This document shows, piece after piece, positions 2,570 through 64,000 of a stretch of DNA of 64,000 nt (within the stretch, counting starts at the first letter, position 1; each line of letters begins with the position of its first letter). The notes beneath the pieces are model-generated. The model worked only from the letters and a program-made list of their open reading frames with translations. It had not been told where the DNA came from and made no database searches. Source of the DNA: Candidatus Zambryskibacteria bacterium RIFOXYC1_FULL_39_10 (lineage in GTDB: Bacteria > Patescibacteriota > Minisyncoccia > Phycocordibacterales > WO2-35-19); contig MHWW01000003.1 in the NCBI GenBank assembly GCA_001824275.1, positions 19,325 to 83,324 of the forward strand. Direction: 5' to 3'. Both the position numbers and the translations under genes were made by a program.

Positions 2570-2606
2570 CTAACTCCCCCTGCCCCCTCTTAAATTAAGA
2601 GGGGGT
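2570..2606. repeat. C-rich REP-like hairpin element (b): ctccccctg CCCCCTCTTAA a TTAAGAGGGGG, overlapping the giant gene stop codon
   Basis: Perfect 11+1+11 palindrome at 2584-2606, preceded by a C-rich tract. Confidence 0.5.
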
Positions 2607-24260: not shown

Positions 24261-24401
24261 CTGAAAAAACTTTTTTTGAAAAGTTTTTTAATTTTTAATT
24301 TACAATTTTTAATTTTTAATAAATGTCTAAATTTTAAATTAGGAAATTGAAACATTGAAAATTATTTGAAAATTTTAAATTAGAAATTGAAAATTAAAAA
24401 A

Positions 24402-35690: not shown

Positions 35691-35750
35691 AAAAATGTGG
35701 CCTCAGAATAGCAGATTCTGAGGCCATTTGCACGCCTTGTGCATCTCTCA

Positions 35751-36368: not shown

Positions 36369-36412
36369 GTTTTTCCTCTTCTCGCCTCAGAATATCCTAT
36401 TTTTATAAATAA

Positions 36413-40370: not shown

Positions 40371-40405
40371 TTTCTAACATAAAATATAGATTTTTGCAAT
40401 GAATT

Positions 40406-41218
40406 TTAGGAAGAATAATTATACGGAATCCAACCATCTTTAGTTTTTTGAATAGACCAAATAGAGTGCCTCATACCTACTTTGTTATTCCACACATCTT
40501 TAACGGCTAGAGTTACACCAGCATGATATGTTCTACCTTCTTTATCTGTTACGAAGTCTTTTTCTCTGTTTTCTTTAGCCAAATTTTCATCAATTTGGTC
40601 TGAGAAGTAATCTAGATCATCTCCGCACATTATTCCCCCTATTTCCAAAATATTAAAATAATTTATAAAATCTTTTTTAGCTTGAGTATATTTGTGGTCT
40701 CCATCTATATAAATGAAATCAAATTGAGTATCTTTTTCTTTCTCAGCGAATTCATCACTAGTCATTTGTATAGGAATTATGTAATTCTCTACCCCTGAAT
40801 ATTTTACATTGTGTTTAAATAAATTAAATATGGCGGATGCACTTACTTTTCCTTTAGTTATCTTTATATTCTCATCAGTACCTCGCCAAACATCAATACA
40901 ATAAAGCATTCCACCTTTACCAGATTTTTTTATAGTTTCAGCTATTGTTACAGCCGAACACCCTGCCCAAGAACCAATCTCTAAACATTTAATATTTTCT
41001 TTTAAATTCTGAACCTGTTTTACTAATCTTCTCAATATCTCTCTCTCTTTCTTGCTTTGTATATTTGCTCCATATTTTTTACCAAAATATGGTTTTTTTA
41101 GGACCAGGCATATAAAATAATGTATGTTTGTAAATATTATTTCTATCTTAAAATGCCTAATCTTATTTAAGATAAAATATAATGGTTTTATTTTTTTTAT
41201 TATATTTTTCATATTCAC
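40406..41218 (-). CDS. class I SAM-dependent methyltransferase (Methyltransf_24-like)
   Basis: LEIGSWAGCSA...IDGDH. Confidence 0.65.
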   Translation of the reverse strand: MNMKNIIKKIKPLYFILNKIRHFKIEIIFTNIHYFICLVLKKPYFGKKYGANIQSKKEREILRRLVKQVQNLKENIKCLEIGSWAGCSAVTIAETIKKSGKGGMLYCIDVWRGTDENIKITKGKVSASAIFNLFKHNVKYSGVENYIIPIQMTSDEFAEKEKDTQFDFIYIDGDHKYTQAKKDFINYFNILEIGGIMCGDDLDYFSDQIDENLAKENREKDFVTDKEGRTYHAGVTLAVKDVWNNKVGMRHSIWSIQKTKDGWIPYNYSS

Positions 41219-41233
41219 CCACTATCTTACAAA

Positions 41234-42739: not shown

Positions 42740-43650
42740 TAATTATTTCTTCTTAAGTTTACAAACGTTCTATAAAAATATGGTCCTAAAAGTGAAAAAC
42801 AAAGATTCACATAACTTCTCCAATTCAGAGGATTAACTAAGATTGATTTTAGAAAAAATTTTATACCTTTTTTCTTTGCACCAGCAATATAACATATGCG
42901 CCCCATTGCAAGCAAACGATTACTAAATTGTTTTGGATGAATTTTATATAAATCAAAATGCTTTAATAAACCATATTCATAATCACGAATTTTTATGTCG
43001 TTTTTGGTCTTACTCGTCATAGTTAATGGATGACGATAAAAATTATAAAGAGGCTCATAAATAAAACTGAAGCTAAAATTTTTGGAAATTCTAACCCACA
43101 TATCCCAATCATCACCAAATCTAAAATTTTCATCAAAAAAACCAACATAAAAAAATACTTCTTTTTTAACCATTACTCCGCTGGAACAAAATATATAATT
43201 CCTTTCTAAGAGAGCCAAAATATGATTAGAGACATTAGGTATTTTGTATTCTTTTCTGGAACCATCAATTTCAGAAACAATCATCGCCTCTGAGACGACC
43301 AAACCCAAATTTTTATTGTCTGTTTTTTCAAAAACGGACATCTGCTTTTCAAGTTTTTTCGGGGCCCACTCATCGTCATGGTCAAGAAAGGCAATATATT
43401 CTCCCATAGCATTTAAAATACCAACATTTTTGGGTTTTGCCGGCGCTCCGGAGTTATTTTGGAAAAAATATTTTATTCTGGAATCTTTCTTTTGAAAAGA
43501 TAGGACCACTTCCTTAGTTTTATCTGTTGAGCCATCATCGACAATAATTAACTCCCAATCCTTAAACGTCTGGTTACAAACACTTAAAATCGTTCTTTCT
43601 ATAAGGTTGCCACAATTATAGGCAGGAATAATAACTGAAACTTTTGGCAT
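42739..43650 (-). CDS. glycosyltransferase family 2
   Basis: VSVIIPAYN....L...............IIVDDGSTD...DHDD. Confidence 0.85.
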   Translation of the reverse strand: MPKVSVIIPAYNCGNLIERTILSVCNQTFKDWELIIVDDGSTDKTKEVVLSFQKKDSRIKYFFQNNSGAPAKPKNVGILNAMGEYIAFLDHDDEWAPKKLEKQMSVFEKTDNKNLGLVVSEAMIVSEIDGSRKEYKIPNVSNHILALLERNYIFCSSGVMVKKEVFFYVGFFDENFRFGDDWDMWVRISKNFSFSFIYEPLYNFYRHPLTMTSKTKNDIKIRDYEYGLLKHFDLYKIHPKQFSNRLLAMGRICYIAGAKKKGIKFFLKSILVNPLNWRSYVNLCFSLLGPYFYRTFVNLRRNN

Positions 43651-43654
43651 AATT

Positions 43655-44629
43655 TTATTTTCTAGCGATCATATACAAGCCTTGACCTTTTTTACCTAAA
43701 ATAAATAAAATAGTAGCAATTGGTAAAAGAATAAGATGTAGTATTTTATCTTTAAGCGAGCCCAGTTTGGCTACAGTATCCTTATATTCTGTTTTTTTGT
43801 TCTGATTAAACTTTTCTTTATCTTTATTTGTAAAATATTTTCTTACAAATACACCTAACCCAACTCTAAATTTAGGAATCAAATAATTTACAGGTATCTC
43901 TTCTTTTATTTTTATTGACTTAAAATTTTCCATTTGAACAATATTTTTTAAAGACTTTTTTGTCCAACGACTCAAATGATGATAAGGAAAATCCCAAAAT
44001 TCATCTCTTGGACCAATTCTCGAGTTGTTTGGAGTGCTGAGACAAATAAATCCGCCTGACTTCAAGGCACCATAAATAGCCTTCAAAAAATCGCGCGGTT
44101 TATCGACATGTTCAATTATTTCAAAACCAGTGATAACGTCGAATTCCCCTTTGTGTCTATTTAAAAAATCAACCACATCATCTTCATAAGTTTCTTTTAG
44201 CCCAAAGCTTTGAGCAACTTTAATTTGTTCACCATCAAAATCAACACCATTGACATCATAACCAAATTTTTGAGCTTCAATTAAAAAACCACCAGTTCCA
44301 CAGCCCACATCTAATAATTTTAGTCCCTTGGGATTTTGATGGGGTGGGTTTCTAAAAAAATGTTTTGTTATACCTCTATTTTCAGCTAGCCAAAAAAAAT
44401 ACTCCTTATCAGGAAAATCTCGATGCATTAAATTTTGCTGACAATTTTTGTACCATTCTGATCCAGGATTTTTAAATGGATACCAAAACTTAACCAAACA
44501 TAATGGGCATTCAAACAAAGAAAATTCTTCATTTTCCAAATTATATTTTTCAAGATACTTGAATTTTTGATCTTTATATATCTTACCAAGACACACTGGG
44601 CATTGGTTTAAATTAGAGATATTACTCAT
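43655..44629 (-). CDS. class I SAM-dependent methyltransferase with N-terminal CxxC..CxxC zinc ribbon
   Basis: LLDVGCGTGGFLIEAQKFGYDVNGVDFD. Confidence 0.75.
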   Translation of the reverse strand: MSNISNLNQCPVCLGKIYKDQKFKYLEKYNLENEEFSLFECPLCLVKFWYPFKNPGSEWYKNCQQNLMHRDFPDKEYFFWLAENRGITKHFFRNPPHQNPKGLKLLDVGCGTGGFLIEAQKFGYDVNGVDFDGEQIKVAQSFGLKETYEDDVVDFLNRHKGEFDVITGFEIIEHVDKPRDFLKAIYGALKSGGFICLSTPNNSRIGPRDEFWDFPYHHLSRWTKKSLKNIVQMENFKSIKIKEEIPVNYLIPKFRVGLGVFVRKYFTNKDKEKFNQNKKTEYKDTVAKLGSLKDKILHLILLPIATILFILGKKGQGLYMIARK

Positions 44630-44632
44630 AAT

Positions 44633-45919
44633 ATGTTATACAATATACTAAATTATCTTTTTTACAACATGTTTAAAAAATTAAAATACAAGCTAGAATT
44701 AATCCTGCTCAAAATAGGAGATTTTCTAAAAACTGACATCAGATACATAGCCAAACAGGGTTCCTGGTTGGCCGGAGGTTCTATAATAAACAATGTGCTT
44801 AGTTTAGTGTTAATAGTCGTTTTTGCTAACCTTCTCCCCGTTTCCACTTACGGGACATATAAATACATACTTTCCATTTACAGTATATTTGCTCTTTTTG
44901 GACTCACTGGCGCTGGTCCAGCCATTATAAAAACTGTGGCCGAAGGTAATGAAAATATTTTTAAACCTGCCTTAAAAGTGCAAATGAAATGGGGTCTTTT
45001 GGGCTCTCTTTGCCTTATTTTTACATCGCTCTATTATTTTGCCCAGGATAATTATGTTTTTGGCTATGGTTTTATTATTGCCACTGTTGCTCTACCATTT
45101 TTTGAGTCACTCAACACATACCAACAAATTCTAGCTGGTAAAAAGAGGTTTGATTTGCAAACAAAATATTATTCTGCTACTCGTACGGTATCGGCAGTAA
45201 GTTTAATAATTGTTTTGTTTTTTTCAAAAAATGTTTTAGTTGTTTTAGCTGCTTACTTTTTGCCATATATTCTTGCAAATATTATATTTGGAGCCTTGGC
45301 TCTTAAAAAAATAGAGCTCAATGATAAGTTTGATCCCAAATCAATTACTTACATAAAACATTTGAGCTTAATTAATGCTATATCTTATGGAGTTAGTTAT
45401 TTGAATGGAATAATTATCTTCCATTTTCTCGGCCCTATCCAACTTGCTATTTACAGCATTGCTTTGGCTCCATCAGCCCAACTGCAATCATTTTTTGGTA
45501 TTATTCCCGAACTTTCTTTACCTAAATATACAGAAACTCCAATAGAAGAAATCAAGGCAACCATATTCAAAAAAATTAGAAAAGCTATGGTAGTTTGCAC
45601 TTTGATTATGCTGGTGCTTATTGTCATAGTGCCTTTCTTTTTTAGGTGGTTTTTGCCAAAATATATTGATGCTATAATCTATGCCCAACTTCTTGCCATA
45701 CCTCTTGTTTGGTATCCTATTGCCCTTCTTTCCAGAGTCTTGCAAGCCAAAGGGGCTACTAGATTTATTTATGAAAGTTGTATCATTGGCTCAATCATCC
45801 AATTATTCGTCATGTTTACATCAATCTATTTCTTCGGGCTTATGGGCGCTGTTATGGGAACTATAATTTATTCTATAATCTCATTCCCTATCCTCTACTA
45901 TTATTTCCAAAAACTTTAA
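44633..45919 (+). CDS. oligosaccharide flippase (Wzx/MOP superfamily); start probably at 44663
   Basis: About 12 TM segments with a polysaccharide-biosynthesis-protein-like profile. Confidence 0.7.
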   Translation: MLYNILNYLFYNMFKKLKYKLELILLKIGDFLKTDIRYIAKQGSWLAGGSIINNVLSLVLIVVFANLLPVSTYGTYKYILSIYSIFALFGLTGAGPAIIKTVAEGNENIFKPALKVQMKWGLLGSLCLIFTSLYYFAQDNYVFGYGFIIATVALPFFESLNTYQQILAGKKRFDLQTKYYSATRTVSAVSLIIVLFFSKNVLVVLAAYFLPYILANIIFGALALKKIELNDKFDPKSITYIKHLSLINAISYGVSYLNGIIIFHFLGPIQLAIYSIALAPSAQLQSFFGIIPELSLPKYTETPIEEIKATIFKKIRKAMVVCTLIMLVLIVIVPFFFRWFLPKYIDAIIYAQLLAIPLVWYPIALLSRVLQAKGATRFIYESCIIGSIIQLFVMFTSIYFFGLMGAVMGTIIYSIISFPILYYYFQKL

Positions 45920-45920
45920 T

Positions 45921-47747
45921 TTAACTTTTCCAATACTTACTCACCACTTTATAATTTGTGATAAGTGAAAAAACAAATCTAGGGTATTTATCAAGCAAAA
46001 GCTGAGCTTTATCTTTTTTAACTAAGTCACAAATATTAGAATCCTTAAGGCCCAGTTCTTCAGAATATTTTTGGTGATACGTAATGGCTTCGTCTAAATC
46101 AGAAAGGACTTTTTCCTTTGCATATTTTCTTATATCTATACCAAAGCCAGATTTTTTTCTATATATCAATTCTTTAGGCAAATATTTCTTCATACTTTCT
46201 TTCATTATTTTCTTACTCAAGGCGCTAGTCGAAAATCTAATGTCTGGAGAAACAGAATTGCAGGTATTGAAAAACTCTTTATCTAAAAATGGCACTCTAG
46301 ACTCAATCCCATAAGCCATACTAGACATATCACCTTTGTACATCAGGTTGTATGGCAAATACATAAATAAATCAAAAAATAGATTAGGTTGAATTAAATT
46401 TTTATATGGGTGATTTTCATAATAATTTTGCATATATAAAAGTGTCTCTTTTTGCTTTATGGGTAAATCAGCAACTCTTGCAGTATACAAATATTCATTT
46501 CCTAGAGTTTCAAAAGAACTAAGAAAATTTCTAGCCCTTGATAAAACGGGGTTAGCAAATTTCATATAGTTTTCAGATTTTAAGGAAAATAATGATTCGG
46601 GGAAAAAACTTTCAAACTTCATTTGATCAAACCCGGCAAAATTTTTGTGTCTTTGATATCCTCCAAAAAGCTCATCTCCTCCTTCGCCCGAGAGTACTAC
46701 TTTTGATCTATTTTTTATGGTTGAAAAAATTAGTGATGTAGGAATAAAAGAAACATCGCCAGTTGGCTGGTCGATTATGTCCCACAACAAATCATATTGA
46801 TTTCTAAAATTTTCTATTGATATTTTTTCTTCAACAAATGGCAAATTTAGATGTCGAGCTACTTTTTTTGCATAACCTTTGTCCCCGCTTCCCTCGATAG
46901 AGACACTGAAGCAGGTGGGATTTTGTCCTGCCTCTTTAGATAAGGCTGCCAAAAATGAAGAGTCATTACCGCCCGACAGTAACAAGCCAACTGGCACATC
47001 AGAGATATAATGCTTTTCCACACTTTCTAAAAGACTTTTGTTAATTAATTGAGATGCTTCATTTTCATCTGTGATTAGAGTGCGGTTATTTTCATTTTTT
47101 ATTTTAGCAAAAGATCTTTTTATTTCTCCACTCCTCAGGTTAAAATTGATAATTTCACCTGGCAAAACTTTTTTAATTTCTTTAAACGAAGTCAGGTCCC
47201 CCGGAAAATAACCAAAATTATAATAAAGAAAATATGCAGAGGTATTTGGAGTTAATTTATTTAATTGTGGTAGGAGTGCCTTGACTTCGGAGGCAAAAAC
47301 AATTTCCTTACCTGAAATAGCATAATAGAGCGGCTTTATGCCAAATTGATCTCTGGATAGTGTTAGCTCTCCTTTCTTAACATCATATAAAACTGTCGCC
47401 CACATGCCTCTTAATTTTGAAAATATTTCAGATCCATACTCTTCAAAACCCTTTAATAAAACTTCAGTATCACTATTGCTTTTGAAGCTATAACCAAGAT
47501 TCACCAAATCTTTTTTTATATCTTTAAAATTATATATTTCACCATTAAATATTATGGACAGATTACTTGAATCATTAAACATCGGCTGATGACCATTTTC
47601 CGATAAATCTATTATTGAAAGTCTGGCTTGGTATAGAGAAATATTTACATCTCTAAATTTACCATCGTCATCGGGACCGCGATGTTTTATAGCGTCGGCT
47701 GATGAAGAAAAATCTTTTTTAAGTGTTGTGCCAAATATGCCACACAT
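45921..47747 (-). CDS. asnB: asparagine synthase (glutamine-hydrolysing)-family amidotransferase
   Basis: N-terminal MCGIFG nucleophile and PP-loop SGGNDSS. Confidence 0.88.
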   Translation of the reverse strand: MCGIFGTTLKKDFSSSADAIKHRGPDDDGKFRDVNISLYQARLSIIDLSENGHQPMFNDSSNLSIIFNGEIYNFKDIKKDLVNLGYSFKSNSDTEVLLKGFEEYGSEIFSKLRGMWATVLYDVKKGELTLSRDQFGIKPLYYAISGKEIVFASEVKALLPQLNKLTPNTSAYFLYYNFGYFPGDLTSFKEIKKVLPGEIINFNLRSGEIKRSFAKIKNENNRTLITDENEASQLINKSLLESVEKHYISDVPVGLLLSGGNDSSFLAALSKEAGQNPTCFSVSIEGSGDKGYAKKVARHLNLPFVEEKISIENFRNQYDLLWDIIDQPTGDVSFIPTSLIFSTIKNRSKVVLSGEGGDELFGGYQRHKNFAGFDQMKFESFFPESLFSLKSENYMKFANPVLSRARNFLSSFETLGNEYLYTARVADLPIKQKETLLYMQNYYENHPYKNLIQPNLFFDLFMYLPYNLMYKGDMSSMAYGIESRVPFLDKEFFNTCNSVSPDIRFSTSALSKKIMKESMKKYLPKELIYRKKSGFGIDIRKYAKEKVLSDLDEAITYHQKYSEELGLKDSNICDLVKKDKAQLLLDKYPRFVFSLITNYKVVSKYWKS

Positions 47748-47748
47748 A

Positions 47749-48540
47749 TTATTTTTTTATAAATAAAAACTGATTACATCCGATATAATTGGTAGTTTTT
47801 ATATTTTGTAATTCAAAACTTCTTTGTTTATAAAAATCAAAAATCTCTCTGACAGAGGCATACTCATAAGGGTAACCCCCAAGCCAATCAACCAGATCAG
47901 TGCTCCATGCCATTCCTCTTTTTGTCTTATAGGAGGACATAACATTAAAAGGATTTTTAAGGTGTAATAATAAAATCACAAAATTATAACTTATATACAT
48001 ATACTCCATAATTTTTTTAACAATAAATGGGGACTTGTTATAAAAATGTTTAATTTGCCACCACATTCTAGAACCCAATTTCCCTTCAACATTATTATAA
48101 ATAGCCACAAAAATAACGCCCCCCTTTTTTATATTTTTTGAAATATTTTCCAGTGCTTGCCACATATTCCCTGTGTGATGCGCCACACCCCAACAATAGA
48201 CAATATCAAATTGGCCTAGGCCAGAAATAAAACTTGAATCAAGCAAAGAACCTTGGTGTACTTGCCAATTTTCTTTATATGGAGAATTGGCCTTAAGTCG
48301 CTCAGCGCATTCTACCGCCACTTTGTCATAATCCACACTCATCACTACTTTAGCTCCAAGCTCTAATGCTGCCAGCGAATGAAGCCCGCTTCCTGAGCCA
48401 AAATCAACAAAGGTTTTATCTGCCAGTGTATCTACCTTCAAAAAATCAGCCAATTTGAGCTTACTAGCCTCTAACACCTCATTAGAAAAATGATTATTTA
48501 GGAAGCTTTGCCAATTTTTGCCAAATTCAAATCTGTTCAT
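47749..48540 (-). CDS. class I SAM-dependent methyltransferase
   Basis: FVDFGSGSGLHSLAALELGA.VVMSVDYD. Confidence 0.72.
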   Translation of the reverse strand: MNRFEFGKNWQSFLNNHFSNEVLEASKLKLADFLKVDTLADKTFVDFGSGSGLHSLAALELGAKVVMSVDYDKVAVECAERLKANSPYKENWQVHQGSLLDSSFISGLGQFDIVYCWGVAHHTGNMWQALENISKNIKKGGVIFVAIYNNVEGKLGSRMWWQIKHFYNKSPFIVKKIMEYMYISYNFVILLLHLKNPFNVMSSYKTKRGMAWSTDLVDWLGGYPYEYASVREIFDFYKQRSFELQNIKTTNYIGCNQFLFIKK

Positions 48541-49571
48541 ATTTCTAATTCAAGCATGTTTAACAGTTTTTTTAAATGCATATCAAATGAAAATCTATCC
48601 TTTACTCTCTCTTTTGCTCCCTTTCCCATCTGAATTATTTTTTGGGGATTATTTAAAAGACTAGTTAACGCTTCGCCAAATGATTTTTTGTCCCCCGGAG
48701 CAATTACAATACCCGAGAGTCCATTTTCTATAATTTCTGGCACTGCCCCAACCGAAAAACATATAGGGGCTAAGCCAAATGACATTGCCTCAAGAAGCAC
48801 ATTTGGACACCCTTCTTTTTTAGAAGTGAGAACAAAAATATCAGAATTTGTATAATGATTTTTTAATAAACCTTTATCCATCGCCCCCAAACATTTTATT
48901 TTATCTTCCATTTCAGATTCCTTTATTTTTGCCGAAATTTTATCAAAAAGAATACCATTCCCTATAATTTCCAGAACAAAATTTTTATTTTTTACATAAT
49001 CTTTAAATATAGTTATTAAATCTTCAAAACCTTTCTTGGGAGTAAAACTACCTACTGCTATAATTTTAATAGGATTATTTGGCTCTTTTTTGTTATCAGT
49101 ATTTTCTTGTATTTCAACGCCATTATATAAAACTACCATTTTACTTTTGTGAAATGGGTCATATGAAGCATAAGAATTTTTAACCGCCCCAGCAACCATT
49201 ACCAATTTGTAAACCAAAAAATTTAAAACGACATCAGCAATTTTAAATTTAAGTGGTTTATCAAAGGTTTCATTTGCTTCTCGGCAAAATAATTTGAAAG
49301 GAGTAAAAATTCTAGCAATTTTAGCTACAAAATTTGCATCATCAAGAGTTGAATAAACATGAGTAATTTTGTCTTTTTTTATTTTTTTTATTAAATTAAA
49401 ATAACCTTTGGTATCATAGAGGTTTTTAAAATTACTTGGATAGAGAGTGTATATTTCACATATGTAACCCAAATTTGAAAGTTCCTCTGCTTCCTTTATA
49501 AAAACACCTTCAGCACCTCCCCTAGACAGCTTATTTATAACAAATAGTATTTTTGTATTATTTTTATTCAT
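48537..49571 (-). CDS. glycosyltransferase family 4
   Basis: ILFVINKLSRGGAEGV plus a C-terminal Glycos_transf_1 E...E pattern. Confidence 0.78.
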   Translation of the reverse strand: MNKNNTKILFVINKLSRGGAEGVFIKEAEELSNLGYICEIYTLYPSNFKNLYDTKGYFNLIKKIKKDKITHVYSTLDDANFVAKIARIFTPFKLFCREANETFDKPLKFKIADVVLNFLVYKLVMVAGAVKNSYASYDPFHKSKMVVLYNGVEIQENTDNKKEPNNPIKIIAVGSFTPKKGFEDLITIFKDYVKNKNFVLEIIGNGILFDKISAKIKESEMEDKIKCLGAMDKGLLKNHYTNSDIFVLTSKKEGCPNVLLEAMSFGLAPICFSVGAVPEIIENGLSGIVIAPGDKKSFGEALTSLLNNPQKIIQMGKGAKERVKDRFSFDMHLKKLLNMLELEI

Positions 49572-51533: not shown

Positions 51534-52298
51534 CTATTTCTTTTCCAAAACAACCATCATTCTGGTAGCAAAAATAAGTGGTAATAAATCCAAAACTTTT
51601 TCTATTTTTTTAATAATTGGCAATACCTCGATTGAATAAAAAGAAGGCTTACTAAAACCGCCTGACAAAACATATGAAAGTGCTGACATTTTTTTTATTT
51701 CTAAGATATTCCAATCTTTAAATCTTTCAATCTTTAAATCTTTAAATACTCTCGTCGCATTGCCTTGAGCCGCGTAGTATTGTTCATCAGGATTTTCACC
51801 ATTTTTATAAAACCAATTTATTTTTTTAAACAAACTCACTGGTTCGTGATGAAAAATCCCGTAAATAATTAAACCCAGGAGTGAGATGTACGGTTCAAAA
51901 ATAATCACTCGTCCATCTTTTGCAAGCACCCTATTAAATTCTTTCAAAGCTGAACCAGGAAAAGCTAAGTGATGAAAAACATCAAACAAAACTAAATTTG
52001 AAACAGAGTTATTTTGAAACGAAAGATTATAGGCACTCTCAACTTGGTCAATCCAAGGATTAGGGAAAATATCGGTCGCGATACACTTTGGGTATACACT
52101 TTTGAAATTACCGATTCCAGAACCAAGTTCCACCACTTCCCCTTTTAAATCACTCCTGACCCATTTTAAGATCAAGTCGTAAAATCCTCTATAGATTTCC
52201 CTTAAAAGCGGCTTCTTATTCCAAGCTTCCAAATTCTTCTGAATCTCTAGATTATGCTGGTCTATATTAATTCCTGTCATAGGTTTATGGCTTAACAT
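51534..52298 (-). CDS. class I SAM-dependent methyltransferase
   Basis: VVELGSGIGNF...LKEFNRVLAKDGRVIIFEP. Confidence 0.7.
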   Translation of the reverse strand: MLSHKPMTGINIDQHNLEIQKNLEAWNKKPLLREIYRGFYDLILKWVRSDLKGEVVELGSGIGNFKSVYPKCIATDIFPNPWIDQVESAYNLSFQNNSVSNLVLFDVFHHLAFPGSALKEFNRVLAKDGRVIIFEPYISLLGLIIYGIFHHEPVSLFKKINWFYKNGENPDEQYYAAQGNATRVFKDLKIERFKDWNILEIKKMSALSYVLSGGFSKPSFYSIEVLPIIKKIEKVLDLLPLIFATRMMVVLEKK

Positions 52299-55471: not shown

Positions 55472-56716
55472 TAACTTAATTTTGCGGGCGGCAAAAATAG
55501 TCATTTGCAGGAGTAGCCAGCCGTGTCTAAAACGGCTGATATTGGTAGTGCCATAAGTTCTCTCTTGATAATGAATCGGTAAATCAATAATTTTAAGATT
55601 GAGTTTGGCGGCACCAAAAAGCAAATCGAAATCGCCAAACGGATCAAAGTCACCAAAAAACTTTCGATTAGCTTTGACATCTTCATAATCCTTTTTCCAA
55701 ATTACTTTGGTGCCACAAAGGGTGTCTTTGAGTCTCTGATCCAAAATAGCACTGAACGCAAGACTGAAAAACTTATTGCCCAAAATATTGAGAACTCGCA
55801 TAGACTCTTTTTGAAGTGGATAAATTAAACGACAGCCGTTTATAAACTCTCCCTTATTTTGGACGATGGCATCATAAAATTTCTTCATTTCTGGTGCAGG
55901 CACTGTCATATCAGCATCATAAATGGTTAGTATATCCCCTGTTGCCATTTCAAACCCCTTTCTTACTGCATCACCCTTTCCTTTGTCTTCTTGTTTTCCA
56001 TATAATATTTTTTTAGTATTTTTATATTTTTCTGCAACCCGCACTATTTCATCGTAAGTATTATCAGTAGAATTCCCCTCAATAAATATTATTTCAGTAA
56101 ACGAGCCGAGATCTGGCAAATCTTTGGCAATCTTCTCTATCGTACCCGCTTCGTTTCTAGCCGGTACTACTATAGAAATAGACGGCAAACTTTTTTCATC
56201 AGAATAAGTTTTTGTTATATGCTTTCTTAAAACTACATAATGGAAAAGTCCCATTCTAGAGAAAGGAAAAATATTGGCGATATATTTGTTGAGGAATGAG
56301 GATACAACAGGAATGTAAATCGGCATTATCATTTTCGTACCAAACTTAATTACTTCCAAGTTGGCTAGGTGAGCAAAATTTTTGATATCGTTTATTGAAA
56401 GCCAATTTTGCTCTATTTTTAATGTAGATCTTAATCTAAATATTGAAGCCAATCGCAGCACCGGCTCCCACAATGAACTATATTGAGTAATCACTATTCG
56501 TCCATCATCATTTAAATACTTTTGTATCTCGGTAAAATATTTTTGAATATCATAAACATAACCAAGAGCATCAGAAACTACCAGGTAGTCATAATCACCC
56601 TTGGACTCTTCTTTTATTTCAAATTTGAGAGTTAAGGTCTTTTTATTACTTGGAACAAGAAAATTTAAGAAAGAATCTAAGTAATTATGGTAATAGTTTG
56701 CAAACAATTTGTTCAT
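55466..56716 (-). CDS. bifunctional methyltransferase-like / glycosyltransferase family 2 protein
   Basis: The C-terminal half SISIVVPARNE......IIFIEGNSTDNT...YDADM is GT2. The N-terminal half is MTase-like. Confidence 0.7.
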   Translation of the reverse strand: MNKLFANYYHNYLDSFLNFLVPSNKKTLTLKFEIKEESKGDYDYLVVSDALGYVYDIQKYFTEIQKYLNDDGRIVITQYSSLWEPVLRLASIFRLRSTLKIEQNWLSINDIKNFAHLANLEVIKFGTKMIMPIYIPVVSSFLNKYIANIFPFSRMGLFHYVVLRKHITKTYSDEKSLPSISIVVPARNEAGTIEKIAKDLPDLGSFTEIIFIEGNSTDNTYDEIVRVAEKYKNTKKILYGKQEDKGKGDAVRKGFEMATGDILTIYDADMTVPAPEMKKFYDAIVQNKGEFINGCRLIYPLQKESMRVLNILGNKFFSLAFSAILDQRLKDTLCGTKVIWKKDYEDVKANRKFFGDFDPFGDFDLLFGAAKLNLKIIDLPIHYQERTYGTTNISRFRHGWLLLQMTIFAARKIKLL

Positions 56717-57746
56717 ATAGTTTATCAGTTAAGGCCTTCAGGCTATGATTGTTTATAACATAATCTGTGAGTTTTTGACAGACTTCCTTTTTTAATACAG
56801 GAGGGGCGTTAAGCCAAAAATCTATCCTGCTAGCGACATCTTCCGGGTTAGGTTCTGCAATCATTCCCTCATCAATCTCCCCCGACAAAGACTTATTAGT
56901 GACGACAAGCAAACAACCACAAGCGGCTGCTTCTAAAATTGTTTTATCAAAACTGCCAGACGGAGTGAGGTTTACATAAATATTGTGCTCCCTATAAATT
57001 TTAGGAGTTTCGTAATTTGGTACACTTTTATAAAAATTAATTTTATTTTTTAAATTTAATTTCTCTACTTTATTTTTAAGAGATTCAAAATAATCTCCCG
57101 TATCTGGCGTTGGATTCCCATAAAAATCACAGACAAAATCAATTCCCTTTTTATCTAAAATATTTAAAGCCTCAACCAGCAAATCTGGTTTTTTAATCGT
57201 ATCCATCCTCCCCAAAAACAATATTTTATTCCTTATTTCGGATTTCGGATTTCGGATTTCGGATTTAAACACATTTGTGTTTATACCAACTGGCATCAAT
57301 ATAGTCTTCTTATATTTTGCCACAAAAGCAAATTTTGAAGTGCAAAAAACTTTATCTGCAAACCAGACTGCTATTCTGGTAAAAGTATTGCCAAATTGGT
57401 GATTTCGCCAAAAATATATTTTTTTTCTAAGAATTTTCCAAATAAATCCACCTAATAAAATGTATTCCTGATTCATGTGCACAAAAACAGAATCATATTC
57501 TTTGTGTAATCCTAAAATCAAATTTAGAAAATTTTTAACATATTTTATTTTGCTCTTACCAGACTCCTTACCTAAAGAATATACCTTCACATTGCTCGGC
57601 AGATTATATTCACCCTTTTCAAGGCAAATAACTGTTACTTTTTCAAACTTTTTAGAAAATTCTTCAATCCATCGATGGAAAAAACCAAGTATTGGGTCAT
57701 TTTTGTTCACTTTTTGAGTCAATATTAGTAAATTCATGACGGTCAA
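56685..57746 (-). CDS. glycosyltransferase family 4, containing an in-frame heptanucleotide repeat
   Basis: GT4 C-terminal pattern. The (GATTTCG)n tract at 57234-57266 encodes NPKSEIRNPKSEIRN. Confidence 0.75.
   Translation of the reverse strand: MTVMNLLILTQKVNKNDPILGFFHRWIEEFSKKFEKVTVICLEKGEYNLPSNVKVYSLGKESGKSKIKYVKNFLNLILGLHKEYDSVFVHMNQEYILLGGFIWKILRKKIYFWRNHQFGNTFTRIAVWFADKVFCTSKFAFVAKYKKTILMPVGINTNVFKSEIRNPKSEIRNKILFLGRMDTIKKPDLLVEALNILDKKGIDFVCDFYGNPTPDTGDYFESLKNKVEKLNLKNKINFYKSVPNYETPKIYREHNIYVNLTPSGSFDKTILEAAACGCLLVVTNKSLSGEIDEGMIAEPNPEDVASRIDFWLNAPPVLKKEVCQKLTDYVINNHSLKALTDKLYEQIVCKLLP
57234..57266. repeat. heptanucleotide tandem repeat (TATTTCG)(GATTTCG)x3 GATTT inside a GT4 gene
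   Basis: 7-bp unit, about 4.7 copies. A change of one unit shifts the frame. Confidence 0.85.
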
Positions 57747-57748
57747 GA

Positions 57749-58402
57749 TTATTCTTTCTTATTTTTAGAAATCCAAAATAAATCGAAAGCAAACAAAGAT
57801 GGAAAAATTTTTGATAATTTTCTGTATCGACCCAATCCAATTATTTTCACATCATTAAATTGTTTCTTTAGTATATCGTTAAGCTCACCATAACTGAATT
57901 GATTTATATGGGTTGGATCTGATAACGGAGTCCATTTTTTTGATCCGAATAAATATCTAATTCTGTTTTTCAAACTAAAAGCATTAGGTACCGAACCAAT
58001 AAAAATACCCTCGCTATTCATATGTCTTAATATAGATTTTAATATTTTTTCTGGATAATATAAATGTTCCAACACTTCACCCGCCACTACCACATCAAAT
58101 TTTTTGTCCCCCAGCTCATTCCAGTCACCATTCAAATCCATATGGATTGTTTTAATACCAAAATTCATTTCCGCTTCATGTAAAGCTTTTATATCTATAT
58201 CCACCCCAAGAATATCATTGTCATCTATAAAATGCTTCGTTAATGTGCCATCTCTACATCCTATATCAATAATCTTTTTACCTTTACCTATATATTTTTT
58301 TAACAAATCACCTCTCTCTTTCTCTAAAATACTAAAATTTTGCGGTCTATTATTTAGATGATGATCTTGATAAATTTTTTGAATTGAGTTTTTCATGTTC
58401 AT
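57749..58402 (-). CDS. class I SAM-dependent methyltransferase
   Basis: IIDIGCRDGTLT...VVVAGEVLEHLYYP. Confidence 0.72.
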   Translation of the reverse strand: MNMKNSIQKIYQDHHLNNRPQNFSILEKERGDLLKKYIGKGKKIIDIGCRDGTLTKHFIDDNDILGVDIDIKALHEAEMNFGIKTIHMDLNGDWNELGDKKFDVVVAGEVLEHLYYPEKILKSILRHMNSEGIFIGSVPNAFSLKNRIRYLFGSKKWTPLSDPTHINQFSYGELNDILKKQFNDVKIIGLGRYRKLSKIFPSLFAFDLFWISKNKKE

Positions 58403-58442
58403 GATATAAATATACCATCAAAAGATAATCTAGAAATACATT

Positions 58443-59993
58443 TTATTTCTCATTAAAGATAAAAAACTTATACAAGACAAAATTTTGAATCATTACAAAA
58501 AAGCCGGCAATGAGTTGAGCTAGAATATACCAGATTCCCAATATTTCCACACATAATGATATAAATATTGTATTAGTTATTACTCCTAAAACAGCCGCTA
58601 TAAAAAATCTAGAAAACTGATGGTGTATTTTATCTGTATTTTTATCCTCAAATACAACAAATTTTTGTAAAACAAAACTTACTATCAAAGAAATCAGAAA
58701 AGCGATAACTGAAGAGTATAAATACCAAATACCTAAAGTATCTGTAAAAATATATAGAGAAATAATATTTATAGCTGCAGATGTAATACCACATATAAAA
58801 TACCTGATAAGCATAATGGAATTAAAAACAGTTTTATTAAATTCAAAAACTCTAGATATAAAATTTCTCTTTTTATAATTATCTGCAGTTCTTATTACAG
58901 AGTCAGTATATTTTTTATAATAATCATCTAGCAAAGCTAAGTGTTTTTGCGCTTCCATTTTTGCCATCTCTCCCATTTTTTGGGCCAAGTTTTTATCCTG
59001 ATAAATTTTTAAAATATTATGGTTAAAAGATTCTGAGTCCTTAGCATCACAAACAAAAGCTGAATCTTTATTAAATACATCTCCAGCTATCCCAGTATCA
59101 GACAAAATCAGGGGTAATCCAAAATAAGCCGCTTCAACCGTAGAGACGCCGTAACCTTCGTAAAGTGATGCCGACACAAAAGCATCTGCCATTTTGTAAT
59201 ATGGCTTCAAATCATTCTCCCAACCTGTAAAATAAATTTGTTCCAAAATGCCCATATTTTGAGCCATTTTTTGAATATTAATTTTCTCTGATCCGTCCCC
59301 TACCAAACAAAGTCCAATATTTTTATTATCTAAATTTTTTATTGCCCTCAAAACTGTTTCAATATTCTTCTCTTTCTCTAAACGACAGACCATAATCAAA
59401 GTAAACGGAAAAGGCTTTTTAAAAGGTCTCCCCTTTGGCCCCTCATTTCCTAAGGGGAGACCTTGGGAAATTTCCATTTTTATAGGCAACACATCAATAT
59501 TTTTAGAAAATGCACCTATTGAATTTTTGATTCTTTCTGACACTACCCTCACCCTATCAGAATATTTCAAGGTAAATTCTGACATCATAAACCTAATTTT
59601 ATTTAGGAGTGACGATTCTCTAAAATATTTGTGTGCTAAATCAGTATGAATCTGAATATGGAGTGGCAAACCGTAAAACAATTTTACTAATGTTCCCACC
59701 ATACCGATCTCAAAAGGGTCTTGGCATGAAATTACATAGTTATTTGGTGAATTTTTGAATAATTTTCTAATGATCCTAAAATAATCAAAAAAATAAAATA
59801 TTCTTATATTAGATCTACTTGGATATAAAAATATGTTATCTGAAAGTTTTTGCTCTTGAAATTTTGAGTCATTTGGGGTAAAGACGATTATATGGATTTC
59901 TTCAAAATATTTACCGTATTCTATTTGCCTTTGCCTGACTGCAGAGTCTAACTCAAATATTTTTTGACCCATTCCTAAAGATATTAATTTCAT
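58443..59993 (-). CDS. GT4 glycosyltransferase fused to a C-terminal GtrA-like membrane domain
   Basis: The N-terminal ~380 aa are GT4-like. The C-terminal ~130 aa have 4 TM helices with a GtrA-like pattern. Confidence 0.65.
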   Translation of the reverse strand: MKLISLGMGQKIFELDSAVRQRQIEYGKYFEEIHIIVFTPNDSKFQEQKLSDNIFLYPSRSNIRIFYFFDYFRIIRKLFKNSPNNYVISCQDPFEIGMVGTLVKLFYGLPLHIQIHTDLAHKYFRESSLLNKIRFMMSEFTLKYSDRVRVVSERIKNSIGAFSKNIDVLPIKMEISQGLPLGNEGPKGRPFKKPFPFTLIMVCRLEKEKNIETVLRAIKNLDNKNIGLCLVGDGSEKINIQKMAQNMGILEQIYFTGWENDLKPYYKMADAFVSASLYEGYGVSTVEAAYFGLPLILSDTGIAGDVFNKDSAFVCDAKDSESFNHNILKIYQDKNLAQKMGEMAKMEAQKHLALLDDYYKKYTDSVIRTADNYKKRNFISRVFEFNKTVFNSIMLIRYFICGITSAAINIISLYIFTDTLGIWYLYSSVIAFLISLIVSFVLQKFVVFEDKNTDKIHHQFSRFFIAAVLGVITNTIFISLCVEILGIWYILAQLIAGFFVMIQNFVLYKFFIFNEK

Positions 59994-60994
59994 ATTTTTT
60001 TATATACTTCAATAAATTCCTCCGCTATTTGATCCCAAGTATGCACAAAGTTAAAGTTTTTTACTTTCTCTTTTGCTTTTTTATAACCATCTTCTGTTAA
60101 AAGATAAGAAATAGCTTCTTCTATTTCTTTTTCATTTAATGGATCAACAAAGGTCCCAGCCTCTCTTATCCTCTCATATATACCCACTTCCTTGGTACAT
60201 ATAAAGGGCCTGTTGAGCTTTATGGCGTCCAGTATCATATTTGGGCTTATATCACCAAGAGAAACCAAAATAACCGCATAAGCACCCTTCATCTTGTCTA
60301 TAAACTCCTGGTATGGCAGATTTTGAGTAAAAAGAGAAACCTCGCTGTTTTCTTTTTCTATTTTTTTAAAAACCTTTTCCAATACATCAAAATTTTTCCA
60401 TGTTAGATTTCTAGCAGAAGCTATAAATATTTTTGATCTAAAGTTTTCGTCAGATTCTTTGGGTCCATAATAATTTTCTACAATGCAAGTATTTTCCTCT
60501 TTCAGTCCATACTCTTTTACAAAGATATCTTTTTGCCACTTGGTTGAAAAGATAATGCGTCGAGTATTTTTAAGCGTCCATTTAGTAACTATGAAGATGA
60601 TTTTCTCTTTAAAAGTAAGCTTCCTTTTCTCTGTATTATAAAAATTTCTAAACAAAACTTTTTTATTGTGTCTCTCACAATATTGTTCCCAAAGAAAATC
60701 ACCTCCGGTTCTTATAATATTTTTTTTAAAAAATAGTCTGGATGCAAGGGCTGTCGGAAATCCTACTCCATATGTATCTAGCGCAAATACCATATCCGCT
60801 CTTAAAATAGAGGGTATTATTTTTAAAAAAAAGAAAATGTGTCTTATTCCTGTCGGAATTTTATTCTCTATAGTAAATGTTTTTACTGAAACGGAATGAC
60901 CTAGTTTTTCAAAAGCTTCCTTCAGATTTTTAGCGTATTGGGCTGGGCCCCCTATTTTGGGCGGATATATTCCTGTAGTGATAAGAATTTTCAT
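59990..60994 (-). CDS. glycosyltransferase family 4
   Basis: MKILITTGIYPPKIGGPAQY N-terminus. Confidence 0.72.
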   Translation of the reverse strand: MKILITTGIYPPKIGGPAQYAKNLKEAFEKLGHSVSVKTFTIENKIPTGIRHIFFFLKIIPSILRADMVFALDTYGVGFPTALASRLFFKKNIIRTGGDFLWEQYCERHNKKVLFRNFYNTEKRKLTFKEKIIFIVTKWTLKNTRRIIFSTKWQKDIFVKEYGLKEENTCIVENYYGPKESDENFRSKIFIASARNLTWKNFDVLEKVFKKIEKENSEVSLFTQNLPYQEFIDKMKGAYAVILVSLGDISPNMILDAIKLNRPFICTKEVGIYERIREAGTFVDPLNEKEIEEAISYLLTEDGYKKAKEKVKNFNFVHTWDQIAEEFIEVYKKI

Positions 60995-62193
60995 TTTATG
61001 TTAAATACCGCACTCATCTGCTTAGCTATTAAATCCCAATCGTATTTTTCTTTCACCATCTTATATGCATTTTCTATTATTTGATTTTTGTTTGGATCAG
61101 AAATTACTTTTTGAACTGTACTCACAATACTTTCTGGATTTTCGGGTTCACAAAAATAACCAGTTGCTATGGCATCAATCCCACTACACATAAGCTTCGC
61201 GGGACTAAAGAGAAAGTCAGTAATTCCGCCAACGGGGGTAGCAATGACTGGCAACTTAGCCGCCATCGCTTCTATAAAGGAAACTCCGAAGCCTTCAGAG
61301 AGTGAGGCTCTGATAAAAATATCACAAGCCTTCAAATATTTTGGAAGACTCTGGTGCGAAACCAAGCCCATAAAAATTACTCTGTCTGAAACCTTTAAGC
61401 TTTTAGCTTTAAGCTTTAAGCTTTCTTCTAAATAACCCTCTCCCAAAATTAAAAACTTAATATTCTCTGAAAGTTTTGTTAAAGCGTGAATCACATCCCC
61501 TACCCCATTTTTCTTTACCAACCTTGATGATGTGACCAAAACAATATCACCTTCTTTTAATTCTAATTCCTGTCTTATTTTTTTCCTTTCTTCTATTTCG
61601 GATTTCGAATTTCGGATTTCGAATTTATTGATGTCTACTCCGTTTGGAATTAGTTCAATCGGAACGTCCACGCCATTCTTTCGCATTCTTTCAATCAAAT
61701 AATTGCTTATTGCAGTTCCAAAATCTGCTTTTTGGAAAACAAGTAAGTGTAAGGGTTTAATTAGCCAGCGGTATAAAAAATTTACACCCAAAACATACCG
61801 CTTAAGATGCTCTTCTTCATCACCTTCTTGCATTGTCAAAATCAATTTAGGTTTTGATTCCTTAATTTTAAATTTAGCCGCCGCAATACTGGCTTGACTG
61901 GCCATCATAGACCAAACGACATCATATTTTTTTTCTTTATAGAGTTTAGCCGCTTTTCTGTGGCCAAAAAGTGCCAACCAAAGTTTATCTAAAGTTTTAA
62001 AACCAAAACCAACTCTGTAAACATTTATATTCCCGATTTTTTCAATACTAGGTAATTTCCGGTCCAGTTTGGCTGTAATCAAATCAAATTGAGTATCAAC
62101 AATTCTGTCAGTAATTTCTTTGACAGCCACCTCTGCCCCACCCACAAACGGGCAATAAGCAGTCGAAAATATGAGTATTTTTTGAGGATTCAT
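60991..62193 (-). CDS. glycosyltransferase family 4, containing an in-frame heptanucleotide repeat
   Basis: ILIFSTAYCPFVGGAEVAV N-terminus and a C-terminal GT4 pattern. The (RATTTCG)n tract at 61594-61626 encodes NSKSEIEE. Confidence 0.78.
   Translation of the reverse strand: MNPQKILIFSTAYCPFVGGAEVAVKEITDRIVDTQFDLITAKLDRKLPSIEKIGNINVYRVGFGFKTLDKLWLALFGHRKAAKLYKEKKYDVVWSMMASQASIAAAKFKIKESKPKLILTMQEGDEEEHLKRYVLGVNFLYRWLIKPLHLLVFQKADFGTAISNYLIERMRKNGVDVPIELIPNGVDINKFEIRNSKSEIEERKKIRQELELKEGDIVLVTSSRLVKKNGVGDVIHALTKLSENIKFLILGEGYLEESLKLKAKSLKVSDRVIFMGLVSHQSLPKYLKACDIFIRASLSEGFGVSFIEAMAAKLPVIATPVGGITDFLFSPAKLMCSGIDAIATGYFCEPENPESIVSTVQKVISDPNKNQIIENAYKMVKEKYDWDLIAKQMSAVFNIK
61594..61626. repeat. 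heptanucleotide tandem repeat TATTTCG GATTTCG AATTTCG GATTTCG AATTT inside a GT4 gene
   Basis: Same unit family as 57234-57266. Confidence 0.85.
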
Positions 62194-62222: not shown

Positions 62223-64000
62223 TTAGCCATTTAAAATTTTTCTGAGAGTATCTTCCGCAACCTCCTTTGGTTTACCGGCTTGCCCCGCCATAGCATTTTG
62301 CGAAGGCTGGGAGACTTTAATTAAATCAGGTTTCTTTTCTTCCCTTGCTACTCCCTGCTCGCTACTGACTACTTTCTGACTTTTAGCTTTCTCTATCGCC
62401 TCTTTCAGAGCATTCACTTTCTCAGGTGTCGCTTCTTTATTTTTATTTTTCTCCCCATGATTTAATTCATGCAGTGATACAACTTCTTTTTTAGGTTCCC
62501 CGCCCGCAACGCTCTCGCTTGCGAGGCGGGCGGGTATTTTTATTTCTTCCCCTTTTTTTCCAATTTCTAAACTCTTATTTCTAATCTCTTTTCCATTTAC
62601 TGCCTCCGCTATCGCTCCTGCTAAAATAGAATTTTTTTGTACCTGCTCTACCTGAGGTTTTGGTTGCTCATATTTTGGACGAGGTTCTTCAAACTTTTTT
62701 TCTACCGGTTTTGATTCGTATTTTGTTTCTCTTCTGGGTTCTTCCTTGTTCATTGGGATTTTGACATAATCTGGTTTTTTTTCTTCCCTTACTACTTGCT
62801 GCTTACTACTTACTACTGGTCTCTGCTCCGGCGCATGCCACTCCTCTATTGCCTTCTCTACATCAACCTTTGTCTGAGAATAAGTTTTGCGAGATAAATT
62901 TAGTGCCTCATCTCTAAACGAAGCCTCGGGTTTTGGGAATGGAGCTAAGGTGGTAGCTGAAAATGGTTGCGAGGCTACCCCATCTATCATTAGTTTTAAA
63001 TAAATTTGAACGAAACCAAGATTTACGATATCTTCAGCGGTGAAAACGGGAGCAAACTCCTTTTCCAAGACCTCAGCATCATAAGAACCGACTCTAAAAG
63101 TGACCATGGTCCCCACGTTACCAAAGACAGCCGCCCTCACTTCTTCAGCCATTTGTTCAATATATTGGTGAGTAATATTTAGACTAAGTTTATATTTCCT
63201 TGCTTCAGAGAGAATATCGGCAAAACTTTTGTTGGCAAAAGACTGAAACTCGTCCACATAAAGATAAAAGTTGGGCAACTTCTTAAGCTTAGTTGGATCA
63301 ACATCAGCGCGAGACATGGCGGCTAAATATATTTTGGTGACAAGCATCGCCCCCAAAAGGTTCGCGTTGTTTTCACCCACCAGCCCTTTTGAAAGGTTTA
63401 CTATCAAAATTTTCTTTTCATCCATTATCTTCCTCACATCAAAAGAAGATTTGGATTGCCCAACAATGTTTCGGATAAGCGGATTAGACACAAATTGACC
63501 GACTTTGTTTTGAATGGCTGGAGTAGCTTCAGCAGCATATTTGTCAGTATATTTGGCAAACTCATCAACCCAAAATGACTTGGTGGTTGGGTCTTTGACA
63601 TTATCAACCACTTTTTTTCGATATTCTTTATCAATAAGCATGCGGTTTATACCTAGCATTGTCGCTCCTGGATACTCCAAAAGAGCTGCCAAAGTATTTT
63701 GCAAAATGTAGGCCATACGAGCTGACCATTGATCCTCCCATATTTTTTCAAAGGCACTCATAAGACCTGAGACCACGAGGTGCCTCCTATCCGGACCGAC
63801 ATCTTCCATCACATTAAAAGAAATAGGAAATTCAGTATCAAAAGGAGCAAAATAAATAACATCTTTGATACGATGTTCTGGAATATAATCAAGCAAAAGG
63901 TCTGCGGTTTTGCCGTGCGGATCTAAGAAGGCCATCCCTTCGCCGTTTTGAATATCTTGAATAGCCATATTCTCAAGCATAGTAGATTTACCCATACCGG
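62223..64000 (-). CDS. TraD/VirD4-like type IV coupling protein family P-loop ATPase (partial; N-terminus beyond window end) with a Lys/Glu/Pro-rich C-terminal tail
   Basis: Walker A GKST, then DPHG, then YLYVDEFQSFA...ARKYKLSLNITHQYIEQ, which matches the T4CP TraG-D_C-like pattern. Confidence 0.6.
   Translation of the reverse strand, partial: GMGKSTMLENMAIQDIQNGEGMAFLDPHGKTADLLLDYIPEHRIKDVIYFAPFDTEFPISFNVMEDVGPDRRHLVVSGLMSAFEKIWEDQWSARMAYILQNTLAALLEYPGATMLGINRMLIDKEYRKKVVDNVKDPTTKSFWVDEFAKYTDKYAAEATPAIQNKVGQFVSNPLIRNIVGQSKSSFDVRKIMDEKKILIVNLSKGLVGENNANLLGAMLVTKIYLAAMSRADVDPTKLKKLPNFYLYVDEFQSFANKSFADILSEARKYKLSLNITHQYIEQMAEEVRAAVFGNVGTMVTFRVGSYDAEVLEKEFAPVFTAEDIVNLGFVQIYLKLMIDGVASQPFSATTLAPFPKPEASFRDEALNLSRKTYSQTKVDVEKAIEEWHAPEQRPVVSSKQQVVREEKKPDYVKIPMNKEEPRRETKYESKPVEKKFEEPRPKYEQPKPQVEQVQKNSILAGAIAEAVNGKEIRNKSLEIGKKGEEIKIPARLASESVAGGEPKKEVVSLHELNHGEKNKNKEATPEKVNALKEAIEKAKSQKVVSSEQGVAREEKKPDLIKVSQPSQNAMAGQAGKPKEVAEDTLRKILNG

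Follow-up and report, generated by a model that had tools for sequence, protein, structure and literature searches.

The question raised by this locus is why two glycosyltransferase genes of one bacterium should carry, within their reading frames, a tandem repeat with a unit length not divisible by three. The stretch of DNA analyzed here as a whole (the window, 64,000 nt of contig MHWW01000003.1) belongs to a Candidatus Zambryskibacteria bacterium of the candidate phyla radiation (CPR), recovered from groundwater at the Rifle site. Two of its genes for family 4 glycosyltransferases (GT4; GT, glycosyltransferase), termed gene 1 and gene 2, each contain a heptanucleotide tract built of the unit AAATYCG, and the original prediction, made from the sequence alone, had taken these tracts for phase-variation switches. 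A demonstrated phase-variation switch fits the tracts less well than does membership in a class of heptanucleotide repeats that is widespread in bacteria and unexplained. The reading preferred here, with a probability of about 0.5, is that both are coding members of this over-represented class of simple sequence repeats (SSRs), in which purity would be maintained by slippage and copy number frozen by selection.

Both tracts were located in frame, in minus-strand genes, as predicted (Table 1). The codons of the gene-1 tract are AAA TCC GAA ATC CGA AAT CCG AAA TCC GAA ATA, which encode KSEIRNPKSEI (residues 158-168), and those of the gene-2 tract are AAA TTC GAA ATC CGA AAT TCG AAA TCC GAA ATA, which encode KFEIRNSKSEI (residues 190-200); each tract starts at codon phase 0. 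Tandem Repeats Finder (TRF) described the gene-1 tract (57235-57266) as period 7 with 4.6 copies, 100% match and a score of 64, and the gene-2 tract (61595-61626) as either period 7 with 88% match or period 14 with 100% match, with scores of 50-64. When the window was searched for RATTTCGRATTTCG with at most one mismatch, six matches were found versus 0.14 expected, all of them inside the two tracts, and six or more matches were reached in none of 100 shuffled windows. The argument that the shared motif is no coincidence held. The Pfam domain Glycos_transf_1 was recognized in both proteins (E = 6e-19 for gene 1 and 1.6e-36 for gene 2). The start of gene 1 had been placed at TTG 57746, but the public annotation begins at ATG 57737. 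The two genes had also been called paralogs, which applies in a loose sense only: their proteins are 25% identical, over the C-domain alone, and their DNA is similar solely in the tract, where 31 of 33 nt are identical. The shared motif therefore cannot be put down to a common ancestry of the genes, and paralogy was rejected as its source.

The position of the tracts in the encoded enzymes is equally defined. The AlphaFold2 model of gene 1 has a mean pLDDT (predicted local distance difference test) of 93.2 and shows the two Rossmann domains of a GT-B fold, for which Foldseek matched HepE, MshA, BshA and PimA at template modelling (TM) scores of 0.73-0.79; together with the Glycos_transf_1 C-domain, this places the protein among the GT4 enzymes of GT-B fold. 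The only low-confidence, structure-free segment of the model, residues 158-170, corresponds to the tract. Both tracts come after the conserved GV(D/N)xxxF motif and before the first strand of the C-domain, and the gene-2 tract has the same reading frame and structural position as that of gene 1. Each tract, at about 4.6 units, accounts for nearly the entire disordered hinge that joins the N-terminal Rossmann domain of its enzyme to the C-terminal one. Linkers without a tract are mostly 12 aa long, those bearing heptamers 14-15 aa and those bearing octamers 11 aa. Since the heptamer linkers are just 2-3 aa longer than the tract-less ones, the repeat replaces the linker and is not a 7-aa insertion. 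The unit AAATYCG is stop-free in all six frames, so that it can be read through in either orientation. A change in its copy number is another matter, and here the prediction of a frameshift was confirmed in silico: the gain or loss of one or two units truncates both enzymes before the C-domain, giving products of 165-172 aa for gene 1 and 197-217 aa for gene 2 from which the whole C-terminal domain is lost. The frame is preserved when three units are gained or lost.

Such changes were sought among the assemblies of this population. The exact gene-1 protein was present on 20 contigs and the exact gene-2 protein on 19 (exact-protein look-up). Further look-ups were made with the exact neighbouring proteins (GT4c, GT4-GtrA and GT2), a procedure blind to the state of the tract-bearing genes, and 24 contigs were read per look-up; these derive from many samples and several assemblers, representing about 20-24 independent assemblies. 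Wherever covered, gene 1 always encoded 350 aa and gene 2 always 400 aa, the sole exceptions in these look-ups being contig-end truncations and one N-gapped scaffold. In the direct look-ups the gene lengths were likewise invariant, and the tracts were identical in every fetched locus of the population. Protein clusters at 90% identity held no variants 7 aa apart. The same tract was recovered in MEGAHIT, SPAdes, IDBA, JGI and Logan assemblies, by which an assembly artefact was ruled out. A flank-plus-gap metagenome scan for other copy numbers of the gene-1 tract, in a collection that does not contain this population and with a pattern that works on the fetched loci, gave no match, and a search for truncated alleles with the N-terminal half of gene 1 yielded six unrelated fragments while missing the parent protein itself. 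The sole hint of heterogeneity is a k=31 Logan contig (SRR2177986_98258; L292:5260-5286) that stops inside the gene-1 tract, after 27 nt of it, although no 30-mer is repeated there. This same contig is on record for two samples; either a drop in coverage or tract heterogeneity may account for this.

Many assemblies break between gene 2 and gene 1 (window 57749-60994; loci L002-L015 and L274-L279), inside the GT4-GtrA or methyltransferase genes. The exact methyltransferase allele of the window was present on only one other contig, its neighbours on at least 24. The rare allele and the breaks suggest strain-level heterogeneity in the cluster.

Among related genomes, 80 gene-1 ortholog loci were selected by tblastn score, and all of the fetched orthologs were intact; protein P0128 is truncated, but away from the linker. 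The tract of the species represented by P0002 is identical to that of the window at 32 of 32 nt (AAATCCG), in an ortholog of 78% identity, where DNA identity is 79%, in the flank and gene-wide alike, and 62.5% at third positions; at the flank rate, the chance of such identity is P=0.0006. The DNA alignments of the closest species are all-or-none, the P0002 tract being identical and the tracts of P0001 and L016 wholly rewritten. The linker unit is AATCYAG in P0001 and L021 (AATCCAG in L021), AATCAAG in L025, AGAATTA (AATTAWG) in L016 and ATTTTCA in L026, and the linker is built of the octamer AAAGATTK in L018, L019 and L020, an octamer also being present in L024. The purity of these linker repeats was 83-100% throughout. 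The gene-1 linker is a short tandem repeat in relatives above ~55% identity and an ordinary linker below ~52%. Orthologous tract pairs between related contigs were equal in length in 11 of 12 cases, the unequal pair being a long octamer array that differs by one unit between related viral contigs. From the identical and the wholly rewritten tracts it follows that the tract is old, length-keeping and concertedly evolving: it predates the divergence of several species and has held its length, near-pure, while whole tracts changed unit in concert between species. As to a possible OFF allele, tracts between the GT4 and GtrA ORFs (open reading frames) of locus L036 were considered and rejected, owing to a stop codon upstream of the tract.

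The occurrence of short-period tracts was analyzed further in 1.17 Mb of Patescibacteria GT loci (80 related loci, each chosen around a GT gene). The TRF census comprised 43 tracts of period 7, seven of period 8 and four of period 9, with few of other periods; among perfect tandem repeats of at least three copies, 16 of 23 had period 7. The period-7 and period-8 tracts were 21-39 nt long, most about 30-34 nt, and 44 of the 50 were situated inside ORFs of at least 120 aa. Since the loci had been picked around a GT gene, the test for GT enrichment was normalised to coding length: 34 of the 44 coding tracts fall in GT genes, although these make up 41% of coding sequence (p=1.6e-6). Each of these 34 GT ORFs was intact, which sets a 95% upper bound of ~8% on OFF-majority populations.

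The tracts recur at equivalent sites, always in frame. Gene 1, gene 2 and the GT4-GtrA gene have them in the linker between the two domains, and gene 1 also in a loop of its N-domain; further sites are a C-domain helix between the motifs G.G and V.F.G (13 cases) and the C-terminal region of the neighbouring TrwB-like ATPase. The helix site includes the second tract of gene 2, which encodes SLKLKAKSLKV without lengthening the helix, and 12 further GT4 genes bear period-7 tracts there with the units AGAGCTT, AAGCTAC, AAACTAC, TCAAATC and others. At the ATPase site of the window, after EEWH.PE, the TrwB-like orthologs of L018 and L020 carry differing units, while in L017 and L025 the tracts lie further downstream in the C-terminal region. 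The period-8 tract AATCTTTA in a methyltransferase gene of the window encodes FKDLKIERFKD, and its octamer unit is that of the gene-1 linker in L018, L019, L020 and L024. Altogether, four period-7 tracts and one of period 8 were observed between 51.7 and 62.8 kb, plus one tract just outside the window. The coding location, the positional conservation across Paceibacteria, the GT enrichment and the concerted unit change are new for heptanucleotide repeats.

Table 1. Repeat tracts and tract-bearing glycosyltransferase genes (window coordinates unless a locus is named).
Feature	Position	Strand	Description	Source
Gene 1	56685..57737	-	GT4 glycosyltransferase, GT-B fold, 350 aa, OHB16231.1	Pfam, Foldseek
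Gene-1 heptanucleotide tract	57234..57266	-	coding strand (AAATCCG)4AAATA, codons 158-168	
Gene 2	60991..62193	-	GT4 glycosyltransferase, 400 aa, OHB16235.1	Pfam
Gene-2 heptanucleotide tract	61594..61626	-	coding strand AAATTCG AAATCCG AAATTCG AAATCCG AAATA, codons 190-200	
Second period-7 tract of gene 2	61393..61424	-	plus-strand unit CTTTAAG, 4.6 copies, 92% match	TRF
Tract in TrwB-like ATPase gene adjoining gene 2	62788..62817	-	plus-strand unit CTTACTA, 4.3 copies, 82% match	TRF
Period-8 tract in methyltransferase gene 51534-52298	51713..51747	-	AATCTTTA, 4.4 copies	TRF
Third AAATCCG tract	L001:931-954 (+); ~64245-64263 by extrapolation		orientation as genic tracts	fetched loci

The AAATYCG motif itself is not confined to GT genes. 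A third AAATCCG tract, with 3.4 units, is intergenic, in the spacer between a DUF4015 gene and the TrwB-like gene ~250 bp past the end of the window. It lies 130 nt upstream of the latter gene and is followed, 66 nt downstream, by a weak, degenerate inverted partner (34-nt arms, 71% complementary). In L030 the orthologous spacer has a tract with another unit, CTTAATT, in 4.3 copies. A metagenome scan for (AAATYCG)3 gave at least 120 contigs of 32-70% G+C content among the matches listed, and in IMG/VR the pattern was present on 36 contigs, versus 6, 8 and 1 for three control units of the same composition. According to Pfam, the tracts lie inside intact ORFs for trmD, an amidase, a P-type ATPase and a class-III aminotransferase, as well as inside ORFs for a YggS-like protein, a xanthine dehydrogenase and a type IX secretion system (T9SS) sorting domain. 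The AAATYCG metagenome contigs also carried 42 further period-7 tracts with other units, versus at most four for any other period. The presence of the motif in two GT genes is no sign of GT-specific switching, since it also occurs in a nearby intergenic spacer and in the housekeeping genes of unrelated bacteria.

Within the metagenome and viral contigs (L096-L251), (AAATYCG) tracts of ~4.5 copies were observed in very diverse bacteria, with length bounds of 28-34 nt; they lie near gene starts or within loops encoded by housekeeping genes, or form inverted pairs. The inverted pairs are 26-90 nt apart (L097, L103, L106, L147, L178 and L241). Within 14 kb, contig L242 (65% G+C content) has more than 13 tracts of heptamers and octamers.

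Heptanucleotide repeats are described as the most abundant class of long SSRs in most bacterial genomes, and a 7-nt register of polymerase slippage has been proposed as their origin (Mrazek 2007, as summarized in PMC4679880 and PMC4692102). The tracts reported here share with this class the excess of tandem heptamers over chance, the predominance of period 7, seen in all the sets analyzed, the several loci per genome and the units common to unrelated genomes. In the summarized accounts of LSSR5-11 (long SSRs with units of 5-11 nt; Mrazek et al. 2007) and of the cyanobacterial short tandemly repeated repetitive sequences (STRR; Mazel et al. 1990), period 7 is likewise dominant, at many loci per genome and in low copy numbers, with unexplained function and 7-nt slippage as the proposed origin. 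As outlined there, those repeats are mainly intergenic and belong to large genomes; in contrast, 44 of the 50 period-7/8 tracts of the present survey are inside ORFs. Nearly all of the present tracts are in frame in genes of a tiny CPR genome, and they occupy structurally equivalent loops whose position is kept across species. Two further families, both of unexplained function, are the TAACTGA direct repeats, present in 2-6 copies across phyla (PMC4679880), and the GGGAATC repeats of Xanthomonas, which form inverted pairs at conserved positions (PMC4692102). As with TAACTGA (in Beggiatoaceae, cyanobacteria and Bacteroidetes) and GGGAATC, a favoured heptamer is found here in distant phyla with no known mechanism of transfer, related permutations are rare, inverted pairs occur, copies number 2-6 per set, and related species keep the positions of the repeats but vary in their sequence. 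Unlike AAATYCG, which is stop-free and mostly read as protein, TAACTGA contains stop codons and is found just upstream of start codons; copy number peaks near 4.5 for the present tracts but falls from 2 for the other two families. An exact-sequence search of the literature for the AAATYCG unit or the encoded peptides gave one unrelated hit only.

On the preferred reading, the repeat would be generated and homogenised by replication slippage or misalignment in a 7-nt register, as the literature proposes for the class. Single-unit gains and losses would arise but, being frameshift nulls as judged in silico, would be purged, and selection against them would effectively freeze the copy number. The encoded peptide would be a tolerated by-product serving as a linker, at a hinge that presumably tolerates any stop-free peptide. 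If the tracts do not switch, they provide a clean natural case of non-triplet repeats long persisting inside genes, and a fresh way into the old question of the abundance of seven-base repeats in bacteria; the units recurring across phyla, the copy number of ~4.5 and the concerted unit change all bear on that question.

Several features weigh against this account. Slippage alone does not account for the clustering of copy number at 4.x, which is seen for periods 7, 8 and 14; the 4.x preference extends to AATTCCT tracts that cannot be coding (4.6-4.7 copies). Slippage gives no account of the fact that AAATYCG is at least ~5 times commoner than the three control units, nor of the defined phase of the tracts (among 54 unique AAATCCG tracts, A1 is the first base in 40, and the usual last bases are AAA or AAAT), nor of the recurrence of one unit in several genes of one genome. 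Two rules for the copy number were tried and discarded: a reading-frame rule (1.x copies plus three units), taken as the sole cause, fails on the non-coding AATTCCT tracts and on linkers that are longer by 2-3 aa instead of 7, and insertion of a fixed ~33-nt oligonucleotide is ruled out by period-8 and period-14 tracts that also have 4.x copies at 36-62 nt.

Phase variation is a minority hypothesis, kept live by the GT enrichment and by the purity that the repeats have sustained; all the tests that could be applied here spoke against it. On this hypothesis the tracts would be true contingency loci, in which slipped-strand mispairing toggles single GTs at low frequency, ON alleles dominate and consensus assemblies hide the OFF state; the benefit would be surface-glycan diversity for an episymbiotic CPR bacterium, e.g., against phage or for host attachment. 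As in the lipooligosaccharide (LOS) and capsule contingency loci of Haemophilus, Neisseria and Campylobacter (including hmw1A/hmw2A), a non-triplet repeat (a 7-nt unit, 4.6 copies) lies within the ORFs of surface-glycan genes, a one-unit change abolishes the product in silico, and several genes of one cluster are affected. High purity kept over speciation implies continuing slippage or conversion, and the Logan contig end and the octamer array that differs by one unit may be counted on the same side. The known loci, however, are long, strain-polymorphic, found in both ON and OFF states and mostly placed near the 5' end or in promoters of host-adapted pathogens, whereas the present tracts are short, mid-gene, invariant and always ON, in a free-environment CPR bacterium. 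The prediction had described them as a classic contingency-locus design, which does not match 4.6 units placed mid-gene, at residues 158-168 in a protein of 350 aa and 190-200 in one of 400 aa: phase-variable heptamers of H. influenzae have 13-38 units, as with (AATTTTG)14 inside an hmw1A ORF (PMC2651432), and phase-variable SSRs elsewhere are enriched near N-termini (PMC3315296). Nor did repeat counts differ between strains, assemblies or close species; the invariant copy number that the prediction had named as its refutation is what was found in the assemblies and related genomes, over 21% DNA divergence. Out-of-frame alleles were seen in none of the 34 GT ORFs and none of the 80 orthologs, and elsewhere tracts of this type reside in essential genes, trmD among them, that they cannot be there to switch. 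Across the assemblies and related genomes compared, no evidence was found that switching is used. We consider contingency loci unlikely: a tract could in principle switch its gene on and off, but it is not kept by such switching, and unit length alone is no ground for annotating such tracts as phase-variable. If the tracts do switch, they would constitute the first contingency-locus system described in CPR bacteria (a literature search turned up no paper on SSRs in this group, nor one that links it with contingency loci), and surface-glycan variation in uncultured episymbionts would be directly testable from reads.

A functional reading also stays alive because the 4.x preference, the favoured unit, the fixed tract phase and the sharing of units within a genome lack an explanation. 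Selection on the DNA itself could lie behind the GT enrichment, and also behind the perfect conservation of a tract whose peptide is disordered. It is conceivable, although improbable, that the glycan loci of Paceibacteria carry position-conserved, concertedly evolving non-triplet tracts at GT hinges and loops that are kept by such selection, whether as low-frequency switches, operator-like arrays or recombination joints. In that case the (AAATYCG)~4.5 tract found across bacteria would have a function and would not be debris of slippage.

The operator-like version taken by itself appears doubtful. It holds that each unit of a tract binds one subunit of a DNA- or RNA-binding factor, so that the tracts form arrays of sites for a factor that would act on the long glycan operon, with coding copies where the protein tolerates them; an analogous proposal exists for the TAACTGA repeats. 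The AAATCCG-type unit occurs three times in the same orientation along one co-directional run of genes, including the intergenic copy, and the CTTAATT unit of the L030 spacer recurs at other sites of that locus. Units are shared more within contigs than between them (27% vs 11%, 19% vs 5% and 57% vs 3%). The preference for ~4.5 copies with defined start and end phases, the favour shown to AAATYCG across phyla, the perfect conservation of the tract at the nucleotide level and the inverted pairs of other genomes, as for GGGAATC in Xanthomonas (PMC4692102), would all suit such arrays. On the other hand, no candidate factor was identified, most tracts of one genome differ in unit, and the series of units at each site looks inherited by descent rather than fixed for the genome as a whole. 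The pan-bacterial spread would further need a specificity conserved in some lineages and fast-changing in others. No RNA structure and no Rfam family were found, and an RNA element was rejected for lack of an Rfam hit and of a significant fold.

Least probable are recombination joints, in which the tracts would serve as short homologies to form in-frame chimeras (gene-2 N-domain with gene-1 C-domain), deleting or duplicating the three intervening genes and shuffling acceptor and donor domains: the two tracts are both in phase 0, 31/33 identical, in the same orientation and 4.3 kb apart, in genes with no other DNA similarity, and population contigs often break between them, where alternative gene content occurs, but no chimeric or deleted arrangement was present in any fetched assembly, the gene-1 and gene-2 linkers carry different units in other species (e.g., L017 and L018), and 33 bp with two mismatches is marginal for RecA-dependent exchange.

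Elsewhere in the window, positions 33536-49571 encode a pathway of the nonulosonic-acid type, including a PseB-like dehydratase, a DegT aminotransferase, a UDP-GlcNAc 2-epimerase, NeuB and a GFO oxidoreductase, together with a Capsule_synth protein, a GT2 enzyme, a methyltransferase, an asparagine synthase and another GT4 gene. A period-7 tract was present in none of these genes. Other repeat features, listed jointly at window positions 2595-9845, 7303-7576 and 24285-24400, comprise an ORF of 2416 aa (2595-9845) with 51/102-nt tandem repeats (5.4 copies, 83% match) and an AT-rich intergenic stretch with two low-complexity period-7 arrays, TTTTTAA in 5.1 copies and AAAATTA in 4.6 copies.

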